Part shown: positions 1,108 through 21,086 of the stretch, piece by piece | Position numbering within the stretch: the first letter of the stretch is position 1 | How the letters are laid out: the number at the start of each line of letters is the position of its first letter | Assembly (NCBI GenBank): GCA_947589135.1 | Contig: CANPZT010000001.1 | Location: 1-39,651 of the forward strand | DNA length: 39,651 nucleotides | DNA from: an uncultured Clostridia bacterium | GTDB taxonomy: Bacteria; Bacillota; Clostridia; TANB77; CAG-508 | Direction of reading: 5' to 3' | Program-made: the position numbers and the translations under genes | Notes under the pieces: generated by a model | What the model was told of the DNA's origin: nothing | What the model saw: the letters and a program-made list of their open reading frames with translations, nothing else | Database searches by the model: none

Positions 1108-1369
1108 ATGTCAAGAGAATCAAACCTTTTTGACATTATTTTACTACATTAATTACTTAAAATTATAAATAATAAATTTATGAAATTATGAATGTTTGTG
1201 AAATAATAATATAAATTCTTAAATTAACAAATGGGAGAATCTCAAACTTGCTTTGAGAGGGGCCTGTTTGTTAATTTTATAATTTGTTTATTATGTAACA
1301 TAACCGAATAATTCAAAAATTTATTATTTATAATTTACTTATGTCAAAAAGACTGATTTCTTTTGACAT
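1108..1369. repeat. long AT-rich palindromic intergenic element, copy A (terminal hairpin modules, 20-bp perfect arms, structured core)
   Basis: Terminal hairpins ATGTCAAGAG..TTTTTGACAT (1108-1136) and ATGTCAAAAAG..CTTTTGACAT (1341-1369) are inverted copies of each other. Perfect 20-bp inverted repeat at 1160-1179 / 1317-1336. Core hairpin at 1226-1272. Confidence 0.8.
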
Positions 1370-2448
1370 TAAATTAAATTATCAAAAATAAATTGTTCCT
1401 GCATTCTTCTTAGTGCTTGTTTTATAGCCTTTGCTCTTACTTCTCCTATTCCATCTACTTCATCTAGGTCTTCTATGTCTGCTGCTAGAATGTGTTGGAA
1501 TGATTTGAAAGAGTCTACTAAATTTTCTACAATGTTTGCTGGCATTCTTGGTATTTTGTTTAAAATACGATATCCTTTTGTATATACTGCAATTTCGTCG
1601 TAATCTTCAAATGTTTCATACCCCAATATTTTTGCTATTGTTGTTTCCTTTAATAATTCTTCATATTCTAATTCTTGTAAGTTTTCTATTACTTTTTCTG
1701 GGGTTCTTCTTTTTCTTCCTGGTACTATGTAATCTTTTATGATTAGTGTTTCTTCTTTTTCTAATCCTCCTATTAATTCTTCAAGTTGCATTTTTACTAA
1801 TCTTCCATCATTTCCTAATGCATCTGTTTGTCTTTGTATTTCTTCTACAATTCTCATAACCATTTCAGCTCTTTGAATTGCTACAATTACATTTTGCAGT
1901 GTTACGATATCATTAAATTCATATTCATTTAATATGTTTAATTTGTTATCAAATACTTTTTTATATCTTTCTAGTGTTTGTATTGCTTGATTTGCTTTAT
2001 TTAATAATGCTTCTGTTTCTTCTAATATGTATCTGTCATTTCCTTTAAACACTGTAATGATACTTCTTCTTTGCGAAATACTGATTACTAGCTCTCCTGT
2101 TTGTTTCGCAGTTCTTTCTGCTGTTCTGTGCCTTGTTCCTGTTTCTAATGTACTTATATCATGTGATGGTATTAATTGTGCATTTGCATATAAAATTTTC
2201 TTTAAATCTCCACTTAATACAATTGCTCCGTCCATTTTTGCTAGTTCATATAATTTTGCTGATGTATACTCTTCATTAATGGTAAATCCACCATCTACAA
2301 TTTGTTTTATTACATCATTGTTATCTGTAATTAATAGTAGTGCTCCTGTTCTTGCTCTTAAGATATTTTCTAGACCATCACGAATTGGAGTTCCCGGTGC
2401 AATTAATTTTAGGATTTCAGTTATATTGTCTTCTTTTCCTTTTCTCAA
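1369..2448 (-). CDS. disA: DNA integrity scanning protein DisA (diadenylate cyclase)
   Basis: 359 aa. DAC-domain motifs DGAIVLS and GTRHRTAERTAKQTG. C-terminal helix-hairpin-helix VDGIGEVRAKAI. Sits immediately downstream of radA, as is typical in Firmicutes. Confidence 0.93.
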   Translation of the reverse strand: MRKGKEDNITEILKLIAPGTPIRDGLENILRARTGALLLITDNNDVIKQIVDGGFTINEEYTSAKLYELAKMDGAIVLSGDLKKILYANAQLIPSHDISTLETGTRHRTAERTAKQTGELVISISQRRSIITVFKGNDRYILEETEALLNKANQAIQTLERYKKVFDNKLNILNEYEFNDIVTLQNVIVAIQRAEMVMRIVEEIQRQTDALGNDGRLVKMQLEELIGGLEKEETLIIKDYIVPGRKRRTPEKVIENLQELEYEELLKETTIAKILGYETFEDYDEIAVYTKGYRILNKIPRMPANIVENLVDSFKSFQHILAADIEDLDEVDGIGEVRAKAIKQALRRMQEQFIFDNLI

Positions 2449-2482: not shown

Positions 2483-3847
2483 TTATTTTAAGCCTATTTT
2501 TTTGATTGCTTCATTTACATCTCTGACGCCTATTATATCTAATTTATAATTATCTTTCAAGTCTTTTTTGTTACTTTCTGGAATAATGCATGTTTTAAAT
2601 CCTAATTTTTCCGCTTCTTTTAGTCTTTTTTCTATCAAATTAATTCTTCTTACTTCTCCTGTTAATCCTACTTCACCCATAATTACCATATCTTTTGGAA
2701 TAGGTATATTTTTAAAACTTGACACTGTTACTATACAAATTCCTAAATCAATTGATGGTTCATTTACTTTCAGTCCTCCTACTACATTTAAGTATACATC
2801 TTGTGACCCTAACATAATTCCTGACTTTTTTTCTAATACAGCAATTAATAGCGATAATCTATTAAAATCAATTCCATTTGCTGTCCTTTTAGGGTATCCA
2901 AAAACTGTTTGTGCAGTTAATGCTTGTAATTCTACTAAAATTGGTCTTGTTCCTTCTATGCTTGAAACAATACATGAACCTGCTGGATTATCTTCTCTTT
3001 CTGATATAAGTACATCTGAAGGATTTGAAATTTCACACATTCCTTCTTCTCTCATTTCAAACATACCAATTTCATTTGTAGAACCAAATCTATTTTTTAC
3101 ACCTCTTAGAATTCTATACGAAAAATATCTTTCTCCTTCTAAATATAAAACAGTATCTACCATATGTTCTAAAACTCTTGGTCCTGCTATATTTCCCTCT
3201 TTAGTTACATGTCCTATAATTATTGTTGTAATTCCTCTTGATTTACATACTCTCATTACTTGTGATGTTATCTCTCTTACTTGACTTACACTGCCAGCAG
3301 CTGCCGTTATTTCATCAGAATACATTGTTTGTATAGAATCAATTATTACTAATTTTGGATTAATATCTATAATTGATTGATTTACAATGTCTATATCAGT
3401 TTCACCTAAAAATAAAATATCTTCATTATTAATTCCTAATCTATCTGCTCTTAATTTAATTTGCTCTGCTGACTCTTCACCAGAAACATATAAAACTTTT
3501 CCTTCACCTTTTACTTTATCACATATTTGTAAAATCAAAGTTGACTTTCCAATACCTGGCTCTCCTCCAAGTAAAATTAGTGAACCTTTAACTAATCCTC
3601 CACCTAATACTCTATCTAGTTCTAAAAAGCCAGTTGATGATTTTAAAGTCTCCTTTGCTTCATATGAATTTAATTTTTGTGGTATATTACTCTTTGTATC
3701 TTTAGCTTTTAAAGTACTATTTTTACTTTCTACCACTTTTTGTTCATAAAAAGTATTCCAACTATTACAAGCTGGACACTTACCAAGCCACTTAGTTGAT
3801 TCATTGCCACATTCACTACACACAAAAATTGTTTTACTCTTTGCCAT
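2483..3847 (-). CDS. radA: DNA repair protein RadA/Sms
   Basis: 454 aa. N-terminal zinc finger CSECGNESTKWLGKCPACNSWNT, Walker A GEPGIGKST, KNRFG motif and a Lon-like C-terminal domain. Confidence 0.95.
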   Translation of the reverse strand: MAKSKTIFVCSECGNESTKWLGKCPACNSWNTFYEQKVVESKNSTLKAKDTKSNIPQKLNSYEAKETLKSSTGFLELDRVLGGGLVKGSLILLGGEPGIGKSTLILQICDKVKGEGKVLYVSGEESAEQIKLRADRLGINNEDILFLGETDIDIVNQSIIDINPKLVIIDSIQTMYSDEITAAAGSVSQVREITSQVMRVCKSRGITTIIIGHVTKEGNIAGPRVLEHMVDTVLYLEGERYFSYRILRGVKNRFGSTNEIGMFEMREEGMCEISNPSDVLISEREDNPAGSCIVSSIEGTRPILVELQALTAQTVFGYPKRTANGIDFNRLSLLIAVLEKKSGIMLGSQDVYLNVVGGLKVNEPSIDLGICIVTVSSFKNIPIPKDMVIMGEVGLTGEVRRINLIEKRLKEAEKLGFKTCIIPESNKKDLKDNYKLDIIGVRDVNEAIKKIGLK

Positions 3848-4772
3848 TATTTATCACCTCTACAATATCTTCTGCTGTAATTTCAAAATATTTCATTAAT
3901 TCATTAGCTTTGCCAGATTTTCCAAAGGTGTCTTTGATTCCTAATCTAATTAATTTTGCCGGACACTTTTCAGTTAAAACTTCTGAAATAGCAGAACCTA
4001 GACCTCCTATTACATTGTGATCTTCTATTGAAATTAGTTTTTTAGTTTCTTTAGCTGATTTTATAATTATTTCTTCATCTATTGGTTTAATAGTGTGCAT
4101 ATCAATTACTCTGATGTTTATTCCTTGTTGTTCTAAAATTTCTTTTGATTTTAGTGCTTCTGCAACAGTCACTCCTGTTGCAAATACTGTTGCATCTGTT
4201 CCTTCTCCAATTTGAACTCCTTTTCCTATCTCAAATTTTGTATTTTCTTCATATATGATAGGAGTTTCCATTCTTGCTAATCTTACATACACCGGTCCTT
4301 GTATTTTTGCTATTTCTTTTATTATCCACTTTGTTTGTGTATCATCTGATGGAGAAATTACTGTCATATTTGGTAATGTTCTCATTAATGATAAATCTTC
4401 TAGCATTTGATGTGTTGCTCCATCTTCTCCAACAGTAACTCCACAATGAGTTGCACATATTTTTACATTCAAGTTTGGATAACAAATACTATTTCTAATT
4501 TGGTCATATGCTCTCCCTGCTGCAAATACAGCAAATGTACTAGCATATGGAATTTTTCCACACGTTGCGAATCCTGCAGCTGTTGCCATCATATTACTTT
4601 CTGCAATTCCCATATCAAAAAATCTATTAGGAAATTCTTTTGCAAATAAATCTGTTTTTGTTGCTCCTGCTAAGTCAGCATCTAACACTACTACATCTTT
4701 ATTTTGTTTTCCTAACTCTACTAAAGCTTCTCCATAGCTTTTTCTAGTAGCTACTTTTTTGTTTATATCCAT
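3834..4772 (-). CDS. transketolase, C-terminal (pyrimidine-binding) subunit
   Basis: 312 aa. The region FFDMGIAESNMMATAAGFA..HCGVTVGEDGATHQ is typical of split transketolase subunit B. Overlaps the radA start by 14 nt. Confidence 0.9.
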   Translation of the reverse strand: MDINKKVATRKSYGEALVELGKQNKDVVVLDADLAGATKTDLFAKEFPNRFFDMGIAESNMMATAAGFATCGKIPYASTFAVFAAGRAYDQIRNSICYPNLNVKICATHCGVTVGEDGATHQMLEDLSLMRTLPNMTVISPSDDTQTKWIIKEIAKIQGPVYVRLARMETPIIYEENTKFEIGKGVQIGEGTDATVFATGVTVAEALKSKEILEQQGINIRVIDMHTIKPIDEEIIIKSAKETKKLISIEDHNVIGGLGSAISEVLTEKCPAKLIRLGIKDTFGKSGKANELMKYFEITAEDIVEVINNGKE

Positions 4773-5502: not shown

Positions 5503-6325
5503 TTAACCTATTAATTCTTTAATTGCCTGATTATATTGCTCTTCATTTGGAGCTTTTCCATGCCATCCTACTTGATTTTCCATAAATGATATTCCTTTTC
5601 CTTTTATAGTTTTTGCTATGATACAAGTTGGCTTTCCTTTTACATTTTTTGCTACTTCAAATGCTTTTATGATTTCTTCTATATCATGCCCATCTATGTT
5701 GATTATTTGAAATCCAAAACTTCTAAATTTTTCATCAATTGGATAAGAACTCATTACATCTTCTATTGTTCCATCTATCTGTAAATTATTATTATCAACA
5801 ATAACACAAAGATTATCTAGTTTGTATTTATTAGATGCCATCGCTGCTTCCCATATTTGTCCTTCTTCAATTTCTCCATCTCCTAGAACACAATATACTC
5901 TATAATCTTTTTTATCTAATTTACCGCTAATTGCTATTCCGATTTGCTACTGATAGTCCTTGTCCTAATGAACCTGATGTCATATCAACTCCTGGAACTT
6001 TGTTCATATCTGGGTGTCCTTGTAGGTTGCTTTTGATATTTCTAAATGTATTTAATTCGTTTGGGTCAAAATATCCTCTGTGTGCCAAACAACTATATAA
6101 TGCTGGTGAACAATGCCCTTTTGATAATACTAGCCTATCTCTGTCTTCCCATTTTGGATTTTTAGGATTAATATTCATTTCTTTAAAATATAATACTGTT
6201 AAAATATCAGCAATTGAAAGTGACCCTCCTGGATGTCCTGATTGTGCATTATATACTTGTTCTATAATTCCTTTTCTAATTTGTTTTGCTTTTTCTTTTA
6301 AGAAATTTATATCTTCACTTTCCAT
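5503..6325 (-). CDS. transketolase, N-terminal (TPP-binding) subunit. Frame is interrupted at in-frame CGG 5941-5939 and is contiguous only with a +1 shift.
   Basis: ORF fragments 5927..6325 (GHPGGSLS, SKGH, GSLGQGLSVAN then R-N-S-N-stop) and 5503..5841. The +1 frame is open from 5940 and reads GIAISGKLDKKDYRVYCVLGDGEIEEGQIWEAA (TPP motif). Confidence 0.85.
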
Positions 6326-6467: not shown

Positions 6468-6656
6468 CATCAAGATGAAATTAAATAAATTGTAAAAATA
6501 TAGCGAATTGAAAGTAATTTGAATTAGAAATTCTCTATCAATTTTATGGAAAGAGTTCAAGCTTGTCTTGGAAGGGTGCCATAAAATTGATTTAGAATTT
6601 CTTTGAAAATTAGCTTGAACGAGCATTTTTACAATTTATTTAATTTCATCTTGATG
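6468..6656. repeat. palindromic structured intergenic element, copy B
   Basis: Perfect 32-bp inverted repeat at 6468-6499 / 6625-6656. It encloses an interior that is near-identical to the one at 20944-21061. The inner long stem is GAAATTCTCTATCAATTTTATGG / CCATAAAATTGATTTAGAATTTC. Confidence 0.85.
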
Positions 6657-8293: not shown

Positions 8294-8340
8294 CTTATTA
8301 TAATTTTTTATTTTCTATTTTTATTAAATTTTTGAATAAG

Positions 8341-18477: not shown

Positions 18478-20763
18478 TTAATATCTTCTATATCCTATAT
18501 TTAAGTCTACATCCCCTGAAATTCCAGATACAGTTCCTGTACTTGTATATTGCCACATATCATATTCATATTTGAAATTAGTTGGTTTTGATGCACTTCC
18601 TGTATAATGTGCTAACCATATTTCATATTGAGAAATGCGTGAATATTCTAAATTATTATAATACCAATCTCTACTAGCATACACCATTGGAGTATATCCT
18701 TTTGATTGTATTGCATTACAAAATGCTATAATTGTATCTGTCCTTGTCTTTTTGTCCAATTTATCAGCTCTTCCTGTTGCTCCATTTAATGCTGTTTCTG
18801 AATCAACAGCTACTGGATATGTAATTTTATAATTTTTTAATAAGCTTGCTACATAGTTTGCTTCTTCTACTGCCTCTGATACATTTACTGCTGCTGGGAA
18901 GAAATATATTCCAACATTAATTCCTGCTGCCTGTGCTCCTTCAATATTCTTTTTAAAATAACTATCTGTATATAATCCTCCTGATGTTGCTCCTCTATAT
19001 CCACATCTTATCATTGCAAAATCAACACCAGATGCCTTTACTTGTTTCCAATTAATATTGCTTCCATTCCACTCGCTTACATCTATTCCTTTATATTGTC
19101 TTTTATATTTTGAAACAATTCTAATTCTAATTCCCTCTATTCTTTTACATTGTCCTACTGTTCCTGCAGTTTCTCCATCTATATACCACTGACTCCATCC
19201 ATAGTCTTGAATATGTACCTGATATTCTACTGTATATGCATCTAATCCTTGTAACTTAATTTGTAAAGCTTCTATTCTTCTACTCATTCCTTGTGTCCCT
19301 GCAAGTTGTCCATCTGATACCCAACCTTGCCATCCAACATCTTGTACATGTGCTCTATATAAGACTTTTGCATCTGTTGGCACATCTTCTAGTTGTATTT
19401 TAATTGCTTCTATTCTTTTGCATTGTCCTTGAGTTCCTGAAATAAATCCTTCTGCCGTTGTTTCTTGCCATCCAATATCTTGCACATGTGATTGATATTT
19501 TACTTCTGGCTCTTTCTTTTCTGATCCTGATTTTATAATTCTAATTTGAATTGCTTCTATAGCTCTACATTGACCAGTTGTACCTGCTATTTCTCCATTT
19601 TTCTTCCATTTTTGCCATCCATATCCTGAAACATGAGCTCTATATTCTACACTATATCCTGATATATTTTCTATATTTATTTTTATTGCTTCTATTGCTT
19701 TTGCTCTTCCTTGTGTACCTGCTAAAGCGCCATTTTCTACCCAATTCTGCCATCCTATATCTTGTACATGTGCTTGATATGTAATTTTACTTCCTGATGG
19801 AACTTCATTTAAGTTAATCTTTATTCCTTCCATATTTTTAGATTTTCCTGTTGTTCCTGCCATACTTTCGCCAACTTTATCTTGCCATCCTATATCTTGT
19901 ACATGTGCTTGATATTGCACTTCTGGTTCTTGTAATACTTCCGCTTTTTTAGTTATTTTTACTTGAATAGATTCTATTCTTAAATTTTCTCCTACTGTAC
20001 CTGCTATCTCTCCATCTTTTCTCCATTTTTGCCATCCTTGGCCTTGTATATATGCTCTATATTCTACACTATAATCTGATATATTAACTAAACGAATCTT
20101 TATAGATTCAATTTTTTTAGCTTTACCTTCTGTTCCAGATAATGCTCCATTTGATACCCAAGCTTGCCATCCTATATCTTCAACATGAGCTTGATATTCA
20201 ATCTTTGCATTTGAGGCTGCATTCAATAAACTAATATTTAATGCTTCTAAACTTTTTCCACTACCAGCTGTCCCTATTGTTGTTCCATCTTGTACATATG
20301 AAGTCCATCCTTGATCTGAAATATGTGCTCTATACTGAACTCCTAATGTTGCTGATACGCTAGTTAGCATTATTCCTGTATTTATTGATTCTATTTCTGT
20401 ATCTTCTACTAATGTATTTGTAGTATTTTGATTAGTTGAATTTTGCACATTATTCATTGTATTTGTATTATTCTTTGTACTATTTGTTGAATTTGTATTA
20501 CTATTTGTGTTATTTGTATTATTGTTATTTATATTATTGCTATTTTTATTAGTATTATCTGTATTAATGTTATTTTTTGTGTTATTCATTGTATTAGTAT
20601 TATTTTGTGTACTATTTGTTAAATTTGTATTAGTACTATTTTGTACGCTATTTGTTGCATTTGTATTAACATTTTCTGCATTACTACTAAAAGCTACCAT
20701 AGACACTATATTACAAATAAAAATAATTAATATTGCACTTGTTAAAAACTTAAATTTGTTCAT
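18478..20763 (-). CDS. secreted cell-wall hydrolase: signal peptide, Asn/Thr-rich linker, nine ChW repeats, C-terminal GH25 muramidase domain
   Basis: C-terminus YKGIDVSEWNGSNINWKQVKASGVDFAMIRCGYRG is GH25-like. Nine H(V/I)QDxGW units. Probable start is the ATG at 20763 (MNKFKFL), with GAAAGGAAGGA upstream. Confidence 0.88.
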   Translation of the reverse strand: MNKFKFLTSAILIIFICNIVSMVAFSSNAENVNTNATNSVQNSTNTNLTNSTQNNTNTMNNTKNNINTDNTNKNSNNINNNNTNNTNSNTNSTNSTKNNTNTMNNVQNSTNQNTTNTLVEDTEIESINTGIMLTSVSATLGVQYRAHISDQGWTSYVQDGTTIGTAGSGKSLEALNISLLNAASNAKIEYQAHVEDIGWQAWVSNGALSGTEGKAKKIESIKIRLVNISDYSVEYRAYIQGQGWQKWRKDGEIAGTVGENLRIESIQVKITKKAEVLQEPEVQYQAHVQDIGWQDKVGESMAGTTGKSKNMEGIKINLNEVPSGSKITYQAHVQDIGWQNWVENGALAGTQGRAKAIEAIKINIENISGYSVEYRAHVSGYGWQKWKKNGEIAGTTGQCRAIEAIQIRIIKSGSEKKEPEVKYQSHVQDIGWQETTAEGFISGTQGQCKRIEAIKIQLEDVPTDAKVLYRAHVQDVGWQGWVSDGQLAGTQGMSRRIEALQIKLQGLDAYTVEYQVHIQDYGWSQWYIDGETAGTVGQCKRIEGIRIRIVSKYKRQYKGIDVSEWNGSNINWKQVKASGVDFAMIRCGYRGATSGGLYTDSYFKKNIEGAQAAGINVGIYFFPAAVNVSEAVEEANYVASLLKNYKITYPVAVDSETALNGATGRADKLDKKTRTDTIIAFCNAIQSKGYTPMVYASRDWYYNNLEYSRISQYEIWLAHYTGSASKPTNFKYEYDMWQYTSTGTVSGISGDVDLNIGYRRY
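19115..20345 (-). repeat. array of nine ChW-domain coding repeats
   Basis: The same repeat unit as in the CotH gene, in alternating long and short subtypes. Confidence 0.8.
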
Positions 20764-20918
20764 TTTTATAATCCTTCCTTTCAAAAATACAAATATTATT
20801 TAAATCCTTTTTTAATGTCTTTTCTTATTTATTTTATCTTTTTCTACATACTTTGTCAATAAATTTTATACAGTCAATTATTGGAATTACAACTATTTTA
20901 ATATATATAAATTTCAAG

Positions 20919-21086
20919 AATGTTATAATAAAAATAAAAGTTTTGATTGAAAGTAATTAAGATAGAAATGGTTAATCAATTTTATGGAAATAGTTCAAGT
21001 TCAACTTGAAAGGGCGCCATAAAATTGATTTAACATTTCTTCTAAAATTAGCTTGAACGATAAACTTTTATTTTTATTATAACATT
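20919..21086. repeat. palindromic structured intergenic element, copy D
   Basis: Perfect 25-bp inverted repeat at 20919-20943 / 21062-21086. The interior is near-identical to copy B (ATTGAAAGTAATT..ATCAATTTTATGGAAATAGTTCAAG..GGGCGCCATAAAATTGATTTA..AAAATTAGCTTGAACGA). Confidence 0.85.

Follow-up and report, generated by a model that had tools for sequence, protein, structure and literature searches.

A previously undescribed family of palindromic hairpin insertions in AT-rich genomes of uncultured gut Clostridia

The 39,651-nt stretch of DNA analysed here (the window, in what follows), from an uncultured Clostridia bacterium, contains two long palindromes, copy A next to disA and copy C inside the rml operon. 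They raise the question of whether they are ordinary hairpins of an AT-rich chromosome or pieces of a repeat that inserts into it and, if the latter, which part of the repeat evolution preserves. The original prediction, made from the sequence alone, assigned both to one modular family of palindromic repeats, together with two further elements of the window, B and D. We evaluated this in the genome containing the window (G000, a 1.27-Mb assembly with 26% GC) and in those of its relatives, designated by other G numbers.

Copy A is a nested palindrome of 262 nt (positions 1108-1369), placed between the start of the cyclophilin gene (1076) and the stop codon of disA (1369-1371, minus strand). As predicted, it abuts this codon, and in fact overlaps it by one base, the final base of the palindrome being the first one of the stop. 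Its right terminal hairpin is the inverted form of the left one, loop included, and the two pair with each other in the predicted fold of the region (268 nt), which is a single long hairpin with z = -8.65 for the + strand and -8.21 for the - strand (0 of 200 shuffles equal). Copy C (13776-13959) is located between rmlA and rfbC, which, like disA, radA and the cyclophilin gene, were confirmed by Pfam. It shares with copy A the terminal hairpins and the arms, at the positions anticipated, and contains only the right interior, with neither left interior nor centre (Table 1). The anticipated spurious N-terminal extension of rfbC could likewise be confirmed, because the open reading frame (13162..13806) overruns the true start, which, judging by homology with the MGKFKK of six relatives, is the TTG at 13752-13750.

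Table 1. Positions in the window of the parts of copies A and C and of the centres of elements B and D
Feature	Position	Strand	Description
Copy A left terminal hairpin	1108-1136	.	ATGTCAAGAG-loop-CTTTTTGACAT; inverted counterpart of 1341-1369
Copy A left spacer	1137-1159	.	little conserved, little symmetry
Copy A left arm	1160-1181	.	copy-specific; complementary to 1315-1336
Copy A conserved asymmetric core, ~150 nt	1174-1323	+	irregular long hairpin that pairs better on the + strand
Copy A near-invariant central hairpin	1222-1276	+	covariance-model match 1220-1279, 85.7 bits
Copy A central hairpin, P1	1222-1235 with 1263-1276	+	14-bp stem
Copy A central hairpin, 4x4 purine internal loop	AGAA 1236-1239 with GGGG 1259-1262	+	
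Copy A central hairpin, P2	1240-1246 with 1252-1258	+	7-bp stem
Copy A central hairpin, loop CTTGC	1247-1251	+	
Copy A right arm	1315-1336	.	pairs with left arm 1160-1181
Copy A right terminal hairpin	1341-1369	.	ATGTCAAAAAG-loop-CTTTTGACAT
Copy C left terminal hairpin	13776-13808 (hairpin 13779-13805)	.	AGTTGTCATAAG..CTTTTTGACAACT; within the spurious 5' extension of the rfbC ORF
Copy C left arm	13837-13863	.	deletion junction 13863|13864 directly after
Copy C retained right interior	13864-13893	+	AATTTGTTTATAATGTAGCATAGCTGAAGA...
Copy C right arm	13894-13920	.	96% complementary to left arm
Copy C right terminal hairpin	13932-13959	.	TTGTCAAAAAGCCC..TTTTAACAA; 7 nt from the rmlA stop codon (13967-13969)
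Element B centre	6535-6594	+	covariance model, full length, 33.6 bits, E 4e-6; diverged relative of the central hairpin
Element D centre	20973-21032	+	covariance model, full length, 31.7 bits, E 1.3e-5; diverged relative of the central hairpin

A genome-wide census, which the original prediction had proposed, showed that copies A and C belong to a multi-copy repeat. The 16-mer at the centre of copy A, ATGGGAGAATCTCAAA, occurs ten times in G000 with at most one mismatch, and nhmmer searches with the core, which in copy A is 89% identical to the genome consensus, retrieved nine full copies (E 1e-37 to 1e-44) as well as a copy truncated at a contig end, one right half and copy C itself. All the copies are intergenic, and a variant at C4:27810-27990 combines the same centre with different arms. 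We also observed that contig C51 terminates within a copy, at an assembly break. With a covariance model of the central hairpin we counted 10 copies in G000 and 33, 17, 13 and 18 in G001, G006, G010 and G014, respectively; of the other 36 genomes, 35 yielded none and G019 a single weak match. Among 40 relatives, the family thus appears in only four other species of the genus, and it is absent from most of the species searched; in a tree of three proteins, the species containing it fall in one crown clade, to which G012, G011 and G007, without the family, also belong. Scanning of species genomes for the exact pattern retrieved the centre from at least 31 assemblies, all of them uncultured Clostridia, Eubacteriales or Bacillota from the guts of rabbit, chicken, mouse and others. 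Nothing similar was found in the plasmid and phage collections searched, and we discarded an origin from either. Rfam identified only a tRNA in the window, and its best matches to copy A had E values of at least 2.7 and scores of 11-16 bits, compared with cut-offs of 35-60. Copies A and C are genuine members of a previously undescribed family of non-coding hairpin insertions in AT-rich uncultured gut Clostridia.

We considered whether there is a distinct entity at all, because a genome with 26% GC abounds in AT-rich inverted repeats (the window has 795 pairs) and both copies could be ordinary terminators plus chance palindromes, or a small protein-coding gene, given that a frame through the centre is open in the copies of G001 and G010. 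This is scarcely credible in view of the E values between copies (1e-37 to 1e-44), the fold z-score of -8.6 and an empty terminator scan. As for coding, the frame is closed in G000, and in several copies it is broken by 1-nt indels in the loop that leave pairing intact, so we rejected a small peptide.

Comparison with syntenic relatives identified empty sites at both loci. The spacer between disA and the cyclophilin gene measures 13-125 nt in 13 genomes of the same genus, versus 292 nt in G000, and that between rmlA and rfbC measures 12-45 nt in six relatives, versus 214 nt in G000; terminal hairpins of this kind were found in none of these 13 and six empty sites. The whole unit is, therefore, an insertion. 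Together with the copy number and the patchy distribution across species, these sites support the placement of A and C in one modular palindromic repeat family, and the family is neither confined to the copies of the window nor a simple conserved terminator. We also discarded that the arms are the stems of hairpins already existing at the target, because no such hairpins are present at the disA and rml empty sites or downstream of guaB, and because the orthologous copies of different species have unrelated arms.

Partial copies in the nearest relatives allowed us to follow the decay of the element. At the disA site, the closest genome (G057, 96% identical) retains only the left terminal hairpin and 14 nt, the lost portion being flanked by ACATTAA direct repeats, and in G203 (92%) what remains is precisely the left half, extending to the loop CTTGCT; G065 (87%) shows there a GC-richer hairpin, GTGCCAAAAGGGGCGGGTCTTTTTGGCA (GTGCCAAAAGGGGCGGGTC...), followed by another type of repeat. 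The remnants in G057 and G203 indicate that the insertion at disA predates the split of G000, G057 and G203 and postdates their separation from G006, G007 and G011. At the rmlA-rfbC site of copy C, the near relative Lapin-013__bin5 contains a full element, ca. 97% identical, from which copy C differs by one clean deletion of 94 nt between AAT microhomologies, at 13863|13864, that removed the left interior and the central hairpin. Copy C is, hence, a deletion derivative of a full orthologous element rather than the alternative combination of modules that had been proposed. Copies decay through internal or half-palindrome deletions, of which copy C is one case.

The comparison with empty sites bears also on whether these are classic MITEs, that is, deletion derivatives of a DDE-type IS that would be mobilized in trans through conserved terminal inverted repeats and would generate a fixed target-site duplication. 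They are small, non-coding, intergenic, multi-copy, palindromic overall and patchily distributed among species, and a subset of minimal copies shares the short end motifs AAGCCARG...CYTGGCTT. However, no target-site duplication was found at disA and rml in comparison with the empty sites, nor in the flanks of ca. 110 copies; the ends vary between copies and are the least conserved part of the element; and no IS shares its ends among the large repeats of G000, none of which is an IS or a transposase, as they correspond to surface proteins, a penicillin-binding protein and the like. Since plasmids and phages, in the collections searched, also contain nothing similar, we regard this origin as improbable.

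The anatomy of the family was drawn from 127 copies, namely an initial set of 66 plus an independent set of 61 from 26 further assemblies, and it has three layers: a conserved core with an apical hairpin, copy-specific arms that match each other, and optional outer inverted modules. The apical (central) hairpin is near-invariant across species and consists of stems of 14 and 7 bp, separated by a 4x4 purine internal loop and capped by the loop CUUGC. When 28 distinct sequences were aligned, 97.6% of the cells were paired and 11 pairs had changed on both sides, values that none of 500 shuffles reached, with both-side changes in 10 of the 14 pairs of the closing stem, P1. The hairpin also survives 1-nt loop indels and, in one case, a base pair inserted symmetrically, all of which would break any reading frame. 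The core, of ca. 125-150 nt, is 59-83% self-complementary and 77-93% identical between copies, and its asymmetries and mismatches are themselves conserved. Conservation is thus highest at the centre and lowest at the ends, and it falls to 60-78% identity between copies in the arm zone (62-95 nt from the loop), while within each copy the zone at 66-80 nt is 98-100% complementary in the alignments, which corroborates the covariation of the arms that had been predicted. An ssoA-like CS-6 motif, TAGCGT, is present in the cores of G000; as a shared feature of the family it was discarded, because it is not conserved in other genomes.

Elements B and D were searched with the covariance model, built from A-type centres only and with a short calibration, so that its E-values are rough. 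It matched both at full length and on the + strand (Table 1), the next match being a simple hairpin with E 6e-4, which indicates that the centres of A, B and D are related and agrees with the view of the A hairpin as a diverged version of the B/D core. The claimed resemblance of the A and C arms to those of D, by contrast, did not hold, as it amounts to 71% over AT-rich stretches and is no better than many chance pairs in the window.

Occupied loci persist across species. We identified five cross-species pairs of orthologous loci with shared flanking genes, four of them involving G000 (C2/G006, C12/G014, C23/G010 and C38/G010), plus three pairs between G001 and G014, and the core has the same orientation in all eight, or in nine of nine comparisons when the pair formed by copy C and L277 is included. 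At one shared locus, two species have arms and outer parts that defy alignment, each being similar to the other copies in the genome it comes from. Of the three G001/G014 pairs, one shows ordinary, unmirrored changes and in two whole segments, including indels, have changed on both arms together. This segment-wise, concerted change favours copying between arms, or replacement by other copies, over stepwise compensation. The idea of a single family evolving by arm-to-arm compensation can, accordingly, be kept in part: the centres are related and the arms co-vary, but changes of whole segments in concert do not demonstrate selection on pairing as the cause.

Pairing is strand-specific. Folded as RNA, the + strand is the more stable one in 65 of the 66 copies of the initial set (mean -58.3 versus -48.3 kcal/mol) and in 58 of the 61 independent copies, or 123 of 127 overall. 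Likewise, in paired columns, G·U occurs in 107 cells at 16 sites, whereas A·C is limited to 11 cells at nine sites, each in one or two copies; in the independent set, G·T exceeded A·C in 55 copies and was below it in two. Only a single strand, then, preserves its base pairing, and it does so under selection. A mutational strand bias was judged an unlikely cause of the excess of G·T, by the reasoning that C-to-T changes on the exposed sense strand would produce A·C on the + strand, contrary to the observation.

The elements land directly after stop codons, even within operons. In the wider set (81 copies), a median of 1-2 nt separates the end of the palindrome from the stop codon of a neighbour that points inwards; the distance is at most 10 nt in 62 of 84 cases, and in 40 the stop lies inside the palindrome end. 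In tandem gene contexts, the + strand is antisense to the genes in 33 cases and sense in 12 (p = 0.002), and the GC skew of the flanks, read on the + strand of the element, is negative in 58 and positive in 21 (p = 4e-5). The orientation bias amounts to 14 of 16 in G000, counting B and D, and is lacking in G001 (10:10) and G014 (6:6).

The latter two genomes contain the copies with the longest arms, and perfect inverted-repeat arms around an asymmetric core are what could be expected of an invertible switch or flipping palindrome, in which the core would invert between the arms and its orientation would be either informative or scrambled. Nevertheless, the orientation is the same in the eight orthologous pairs and in the pair of copy C and L277, so flipping has no case in nine comparisons. 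The arms, moreover, differ from copy to copy and hence offer no single site for a recombinase, no linked recombinase gene lies nearby, and frequent flipping would erase the overall bias of 58:21. We consider inversion very improbable.

A serious rival, although we deem it unlikely, is that the conserved core is a structured RNA, either an antisense small RNA gene or a cis-acting element of 3' ends involved in processing, stability or termination, the palindromic behaviour of the DNA being then secondary to selection on RNA. Consistent with it are the near-invariance of the central hairpin in at least 31 assemblies, its strong covariation, the tolerance of G·U and not of A·C together with the better folding of the + strand in 123 of 127 copies, and the loop indels and symmetric base-pair insertion that preserve the hairpin and break reading frames. 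The maintenance of loci and orientation across species, and the position directly after stop codons, would also fit an element of the 3' UTR. However, in roughly three of every four tandem contexts (33:12) the strand that pairs well runs antisense to the operon, which implies that the mRNA of the host carries the poorer strand. Promoter-like sites around copy A were no commoner than in shuffles in a consensus scan, no canonical terminator was found there, and a promoter or terminator role is accordingly not supported; Rfam gave no match to copy A even at E up to 10. The family is also absent from most species of the genus and has been deleted in near relatives without replacement. By eye, we noted TTGACA within the terminal hairpins and, inside the core, a TTGAGA-19-TA(G/T)AAT motif.

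The outer modules point to a possible link of the family to RAYT-like genes. In copies of G001 and G014, the core and arms lie within a much larger palindrome, whose outer parts are AGGGGACGTTCC..ATCCCTAAAATTCGGGAT..GGGGACGGACC and TTTTGGGGACGCGTCCAAAAAGGG; those of G006 are a related version, and the three genomes share a box-hairpin-box plan with inverted GGGGACG modules. At the C2 locus, a GGGGACG doublet is present with the core in G006 and G000 and without it in G001 and G014, and the site is occupied by one small hairpin in G010 and by a plain one in G002. Intermediate forms connect GGGACGTGTCAAAA to the TGTCAAAAAG hairpins: one G001 copy contains TTTAGACAGATGTCAAAAAAC, where its G014 orthologue has GGGGACGCGTCCAAAAAGGG, other assemblies contain GTGTCAAAAGGGACTTGTC and TAGGGACGTGTCAAAACG, and the hairpin of G065 also links the boxes to the TGTCAAAAAG type. 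Judging from these series, the TGTCAAAAAG..CTTTTTGACA terminal hairpins of the window would be AT-decayed boxes of the GGGGACG type.

Genes of 255-290 aa with the Pfam domain Y1_Tnp are present in 14 of 26 genomes. RAYT-like genes were found in all five genomes of the first sample that contain the family, and Y1 genes also in six genomes of the genus without it. Six RAYT-like loci of the relatives have inverted GGGGACG motifs on both sides, and in five of them the bracket spans the gene, an arrangement that has been termed "REPtron" (PMC6006769). The flanking repeats that we read in G006, G007, G014 and G005 are box-hairpin-box units, GGGGACGTTTCC..GGACATTTTTGTCC..GGGGAC, and those of G006, G007 and G014 share the GGGGACG class of the outer modules without being identical to them. 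The RAYT-like genes of G006, G007 and G014 include orthologues linked to radA. In G000, the sole RAYT-like gene (C131:2070-2885) scores 40.8 bits with Pfam Y1_Tnp, against a cut-off of 23, and 65.3 bits with NCBIfam REP_Tyr_transpos, under the cut-off of 80; it is flanked neither by TGTCAAAAAG hairpins nor by the core, but by a third repeat, GTTGCCATTTAAACCCGGAAC, with 52 sites across the genome. The same genome also contains ca. 20 hairpins of the type TGAGACAATGGGGACAGTC.

Occurrence of the family and of Y1 genes can be dissociated, as G007 contains four such genes and no copy of the family, and G010 and several other genomes contain copies without recognisable REP boxes. No Y1 gene lies beside any covariance-model match in the genomes scanned and, since the large repeats of G000 are ordinary genes, an autonomous partner was discarded; two copies separated by 880 nt flank an ordinary uracil-DNA glycosylase gene. 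The transposase or RAYT gene that the original prediction suggested looking for was, therefore, not found in linkage with the central hairpin, and a resemblance to the repeats around RAYT-like genes is confined to the outer modules.

Small intergenic palindromic repeats or MITEs of bacteria include ERIC/IRU, Correia (NEMIS), bcr1, RUP and BOX, which are imperfect palindromes of 100-300 bp located between genes or inside operons, co-transcribed as hairpins and with deletion derivatives, BOX being modular. To our knowledge, none of them shows sequence similarity to the present family. Correia, RUP and bcr1 elements are delimited by defined terminal inverted repeats, generate target duplications (TA, TTTAT) and are linked to known IS families; neither the defined ends, nor a target duplication, nor an IS link were found here. 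The ends of IS200/IS605 elements and their PATE/MITE derivatives, moved by single-stranded "peel and paste" with Y1 HUH enzymes, are comparable in that strand-specific imperfect hairpins are the likely recognised structure, in the absence of target duplication and in a chromosomal orientation bias. In contrast, their hairpins are short and subterminal, the elements as a whole are no global palindromes, and in our family no tnpA or tnpB is linked and the biased strand is apparently the opposite of the lagging-strand template.

The closest resemblance is to REPINs (hairpin-forming REP doublets), with their RAYT transposases, and to the BIMEs known from Enterobacteria and Pseudomonas (Bertels & Rainey 2011, PMC3116915; PMC3337134; Quentin et al. 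2018, PMC6006769): extragenic, non-coding palindromes of inverted modules that fold into a long hairpin, occur after genes in tens of copies per genome, cause no target duplication, persist vertically at orthologous sites and form species-specific sequence populations. As in BIMEs, the modules combine in mosaic, nested arrays and, as in REPIN/RAYT systems, RAYT-like genes are flanked in the relatives by inverted repeats of the outer-module box type. There are also clear differences. What is conserved here is an asymmetric centre of 125-150 nt, and not REP ends with a variable spacer; the core never adjoins a Y1 gene; the outer boxes are decayed in G000, where the only RAYT-like gene is flanked by the other repeat, GTTGCCATTTAAACCCGGAAC; copy numbers are lower (10-33); and the host lineage is Clostridia. 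Bertels et al. (2017, 10.1101/119735) report a strong association with REP sequences for RAYT groups 2 and 3 alone, and the Clostridia group is neither of these. Published accounts of REPINs mention long-term vertical persistence and single-copy RAYTs, and both REPtron arrangements and Y1 subclasses with long C-terminal domains have been described (Quentin et al. 2018, PMC6006769).

Taken together, we favour, with a probability of roughly 0.6, that the family of copies A and C consists of mobile elements that are palindromic, non-coding and non-autonomous, with a mosaic, REPIN/BIME-like build. The element would be handled as a folded single strand, most likely as ssDNA recognised by an HUH-type enzyme such as the RAYT-like proteins, which through the outer boxes would be the only visible candidates. 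Its two arms might be kept identical by copying at the level of DNA, either by template switching within the palindrome or by replacement by other copies, selection for individual base pairs presumably playing no part in it. The host is probably affected as well, for instance through mRNAs that would carry a large hairpin in their 3' portion. Against the REPIN-like reading, no enzyme is tied to the element, and the copies without REP boxes imply that core and arms must spread in some other way or that these copies are fossils. The model of an ssDNA substrate, in turn, has to contend with a better-pairing strand opposite the main coding strand since, if genes run with replication, the favoured strand is not the lagging-strand template that IS200/IS605-type enzymes use.

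An invariant, strand-specific centre, with free self-matching arms and decaying end boxes, indicates that selection acts on something other than transposase sites. A bolder proposal, which we hold to be quite unlikely, is that the core hairpin would be the functional component proper of a new kind of replicator or of a signal adopted by the host, that is, a strand-specific ssDNA structure under purifying selection at fixed loci that outlasts its carrier boxes inside REPIN-like shells; it may serve as recognition site for some HUH-type enzyme, or for priming or promoter activity in the manner of sso/Frpo hairpins. If true, this would be a "cargo-carrying REPIN", in which evolution preserves the cargo rather than the ends, settled exactly at stop codons.

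Elements of the REP/REPIN type have been well studied almost only in Proteobacteria, and the present family extends a comparable mosaic system to a large genus of uncultured gut Clostridia with AT-rich genomes. Its insertions are relevant for annotation, as they yield false N-terminal extensions, as in rfbC, overlap with stop codons or provide them, interrupt operons and cause breaks in assemblies. Furthermore, its loci offer dated examples of the birth, persistence and decay of palindromes, the latter as a half-palindrome, a solo hairpin and a deletion of the centre, which could be used for studies of palindrome stability in bacteria.

In four relatives of G000, the draft genome that carries the window, a RAYT-like gene (Y1 HUH transposase type) of 255-290 aa occupies a conserved position before radA, ca. 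2 kb upstream of disA. The corresponding place in the window is occupied by a transketolase subunit gene (3837-4772), and therefore the disA-upstream RAYT-like gene has been lost from G000 or relocated. Pfam comparisons also showed that the N-terminal transketolase domain (Transketolase_N) is divided between two ORFs of the window, which may reflect a CGG-linked frame break.

Location of repeats, RAYT-like genes and transketolase ORFs
Feature	Location	Detail
GTTGCCATTTAAACCCGGAAC sites, two	window 8340-8390	3' of M20 peptidase gene
TGAGACAATGGGGACGGTCTTTAAATGTCTCA hairpins, two, inverted	window 9712-9849	spaced 60 nt
GTTGCCATTTAAACCCGGAAC repeats	G000 C131:1783-2915	both sides of RAYT-like Y1 gene
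RAYT-like gene	G006:C21:22076-22408	upstream of disA
RAYT-like gene	G007:C4:73722-74054	upstream of disA
RAYT-like gene	G010:C90:4131-4460	upstream of disA
RAYT-like gene	G014:C58:9506-9787	upstream of disA
ORF	window 5506-5841	Transketolase_N positions 170-271
ORF	window 5930-6325	Transketolase_N positions 4-121

Two incomplete copies of the palindromic element lie at contig ends of G000. Contig C51 stops precisely within the loop of one copy (C51:8720-8852), indicating that the element palindromes break the assembly; copy numbers of the element from draft MAGs are lower bounds. C105:1-140 contains a right-half copy, whose left side is fused to unrelated, GC-richer sequence that includes GCGTAAGCGACCAAACGGAGCATAGCGAAGTGCGATTTGGAGCAAC and reaches the contig start. 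A similar string is present downstream of guaB in the relative G002. The sequence fused to the half copy in C105 could represent a terminus of a further mobile element that has entered the palindrome at its centre.

The repeat table of the window is dominated by the many 135-nt (45-aa) tandem repeats of two large genes (15860-17842 and 18478-20784). The window also contains a second palindromic repeat, an inverted pair of TGAGACAATGGGGACGGTCTTTAAATGTCTCA hairpins similar in shape to a REPIN, an inverted REP doublet. Hairpins of this type number ca. 20 in G000, with four as doublets ca. 110 nt apart, and their box matches the GGGGACG repeats flanking RAYT-like genes in relatives.

A third repeat, GTTGCCATTTAAACCCGGAAC, has 52 sites in G000, mostly as inverted doublets, and also surrounds the only RAYT-like Y1 gene of this genome (C131:2070-2885). 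This arrangement resembles a REPtron, in which inverted REP repeats bracket a RAYT gene and, to our knowledge, there are few records of REPtron-like arrangements for Clostridia.
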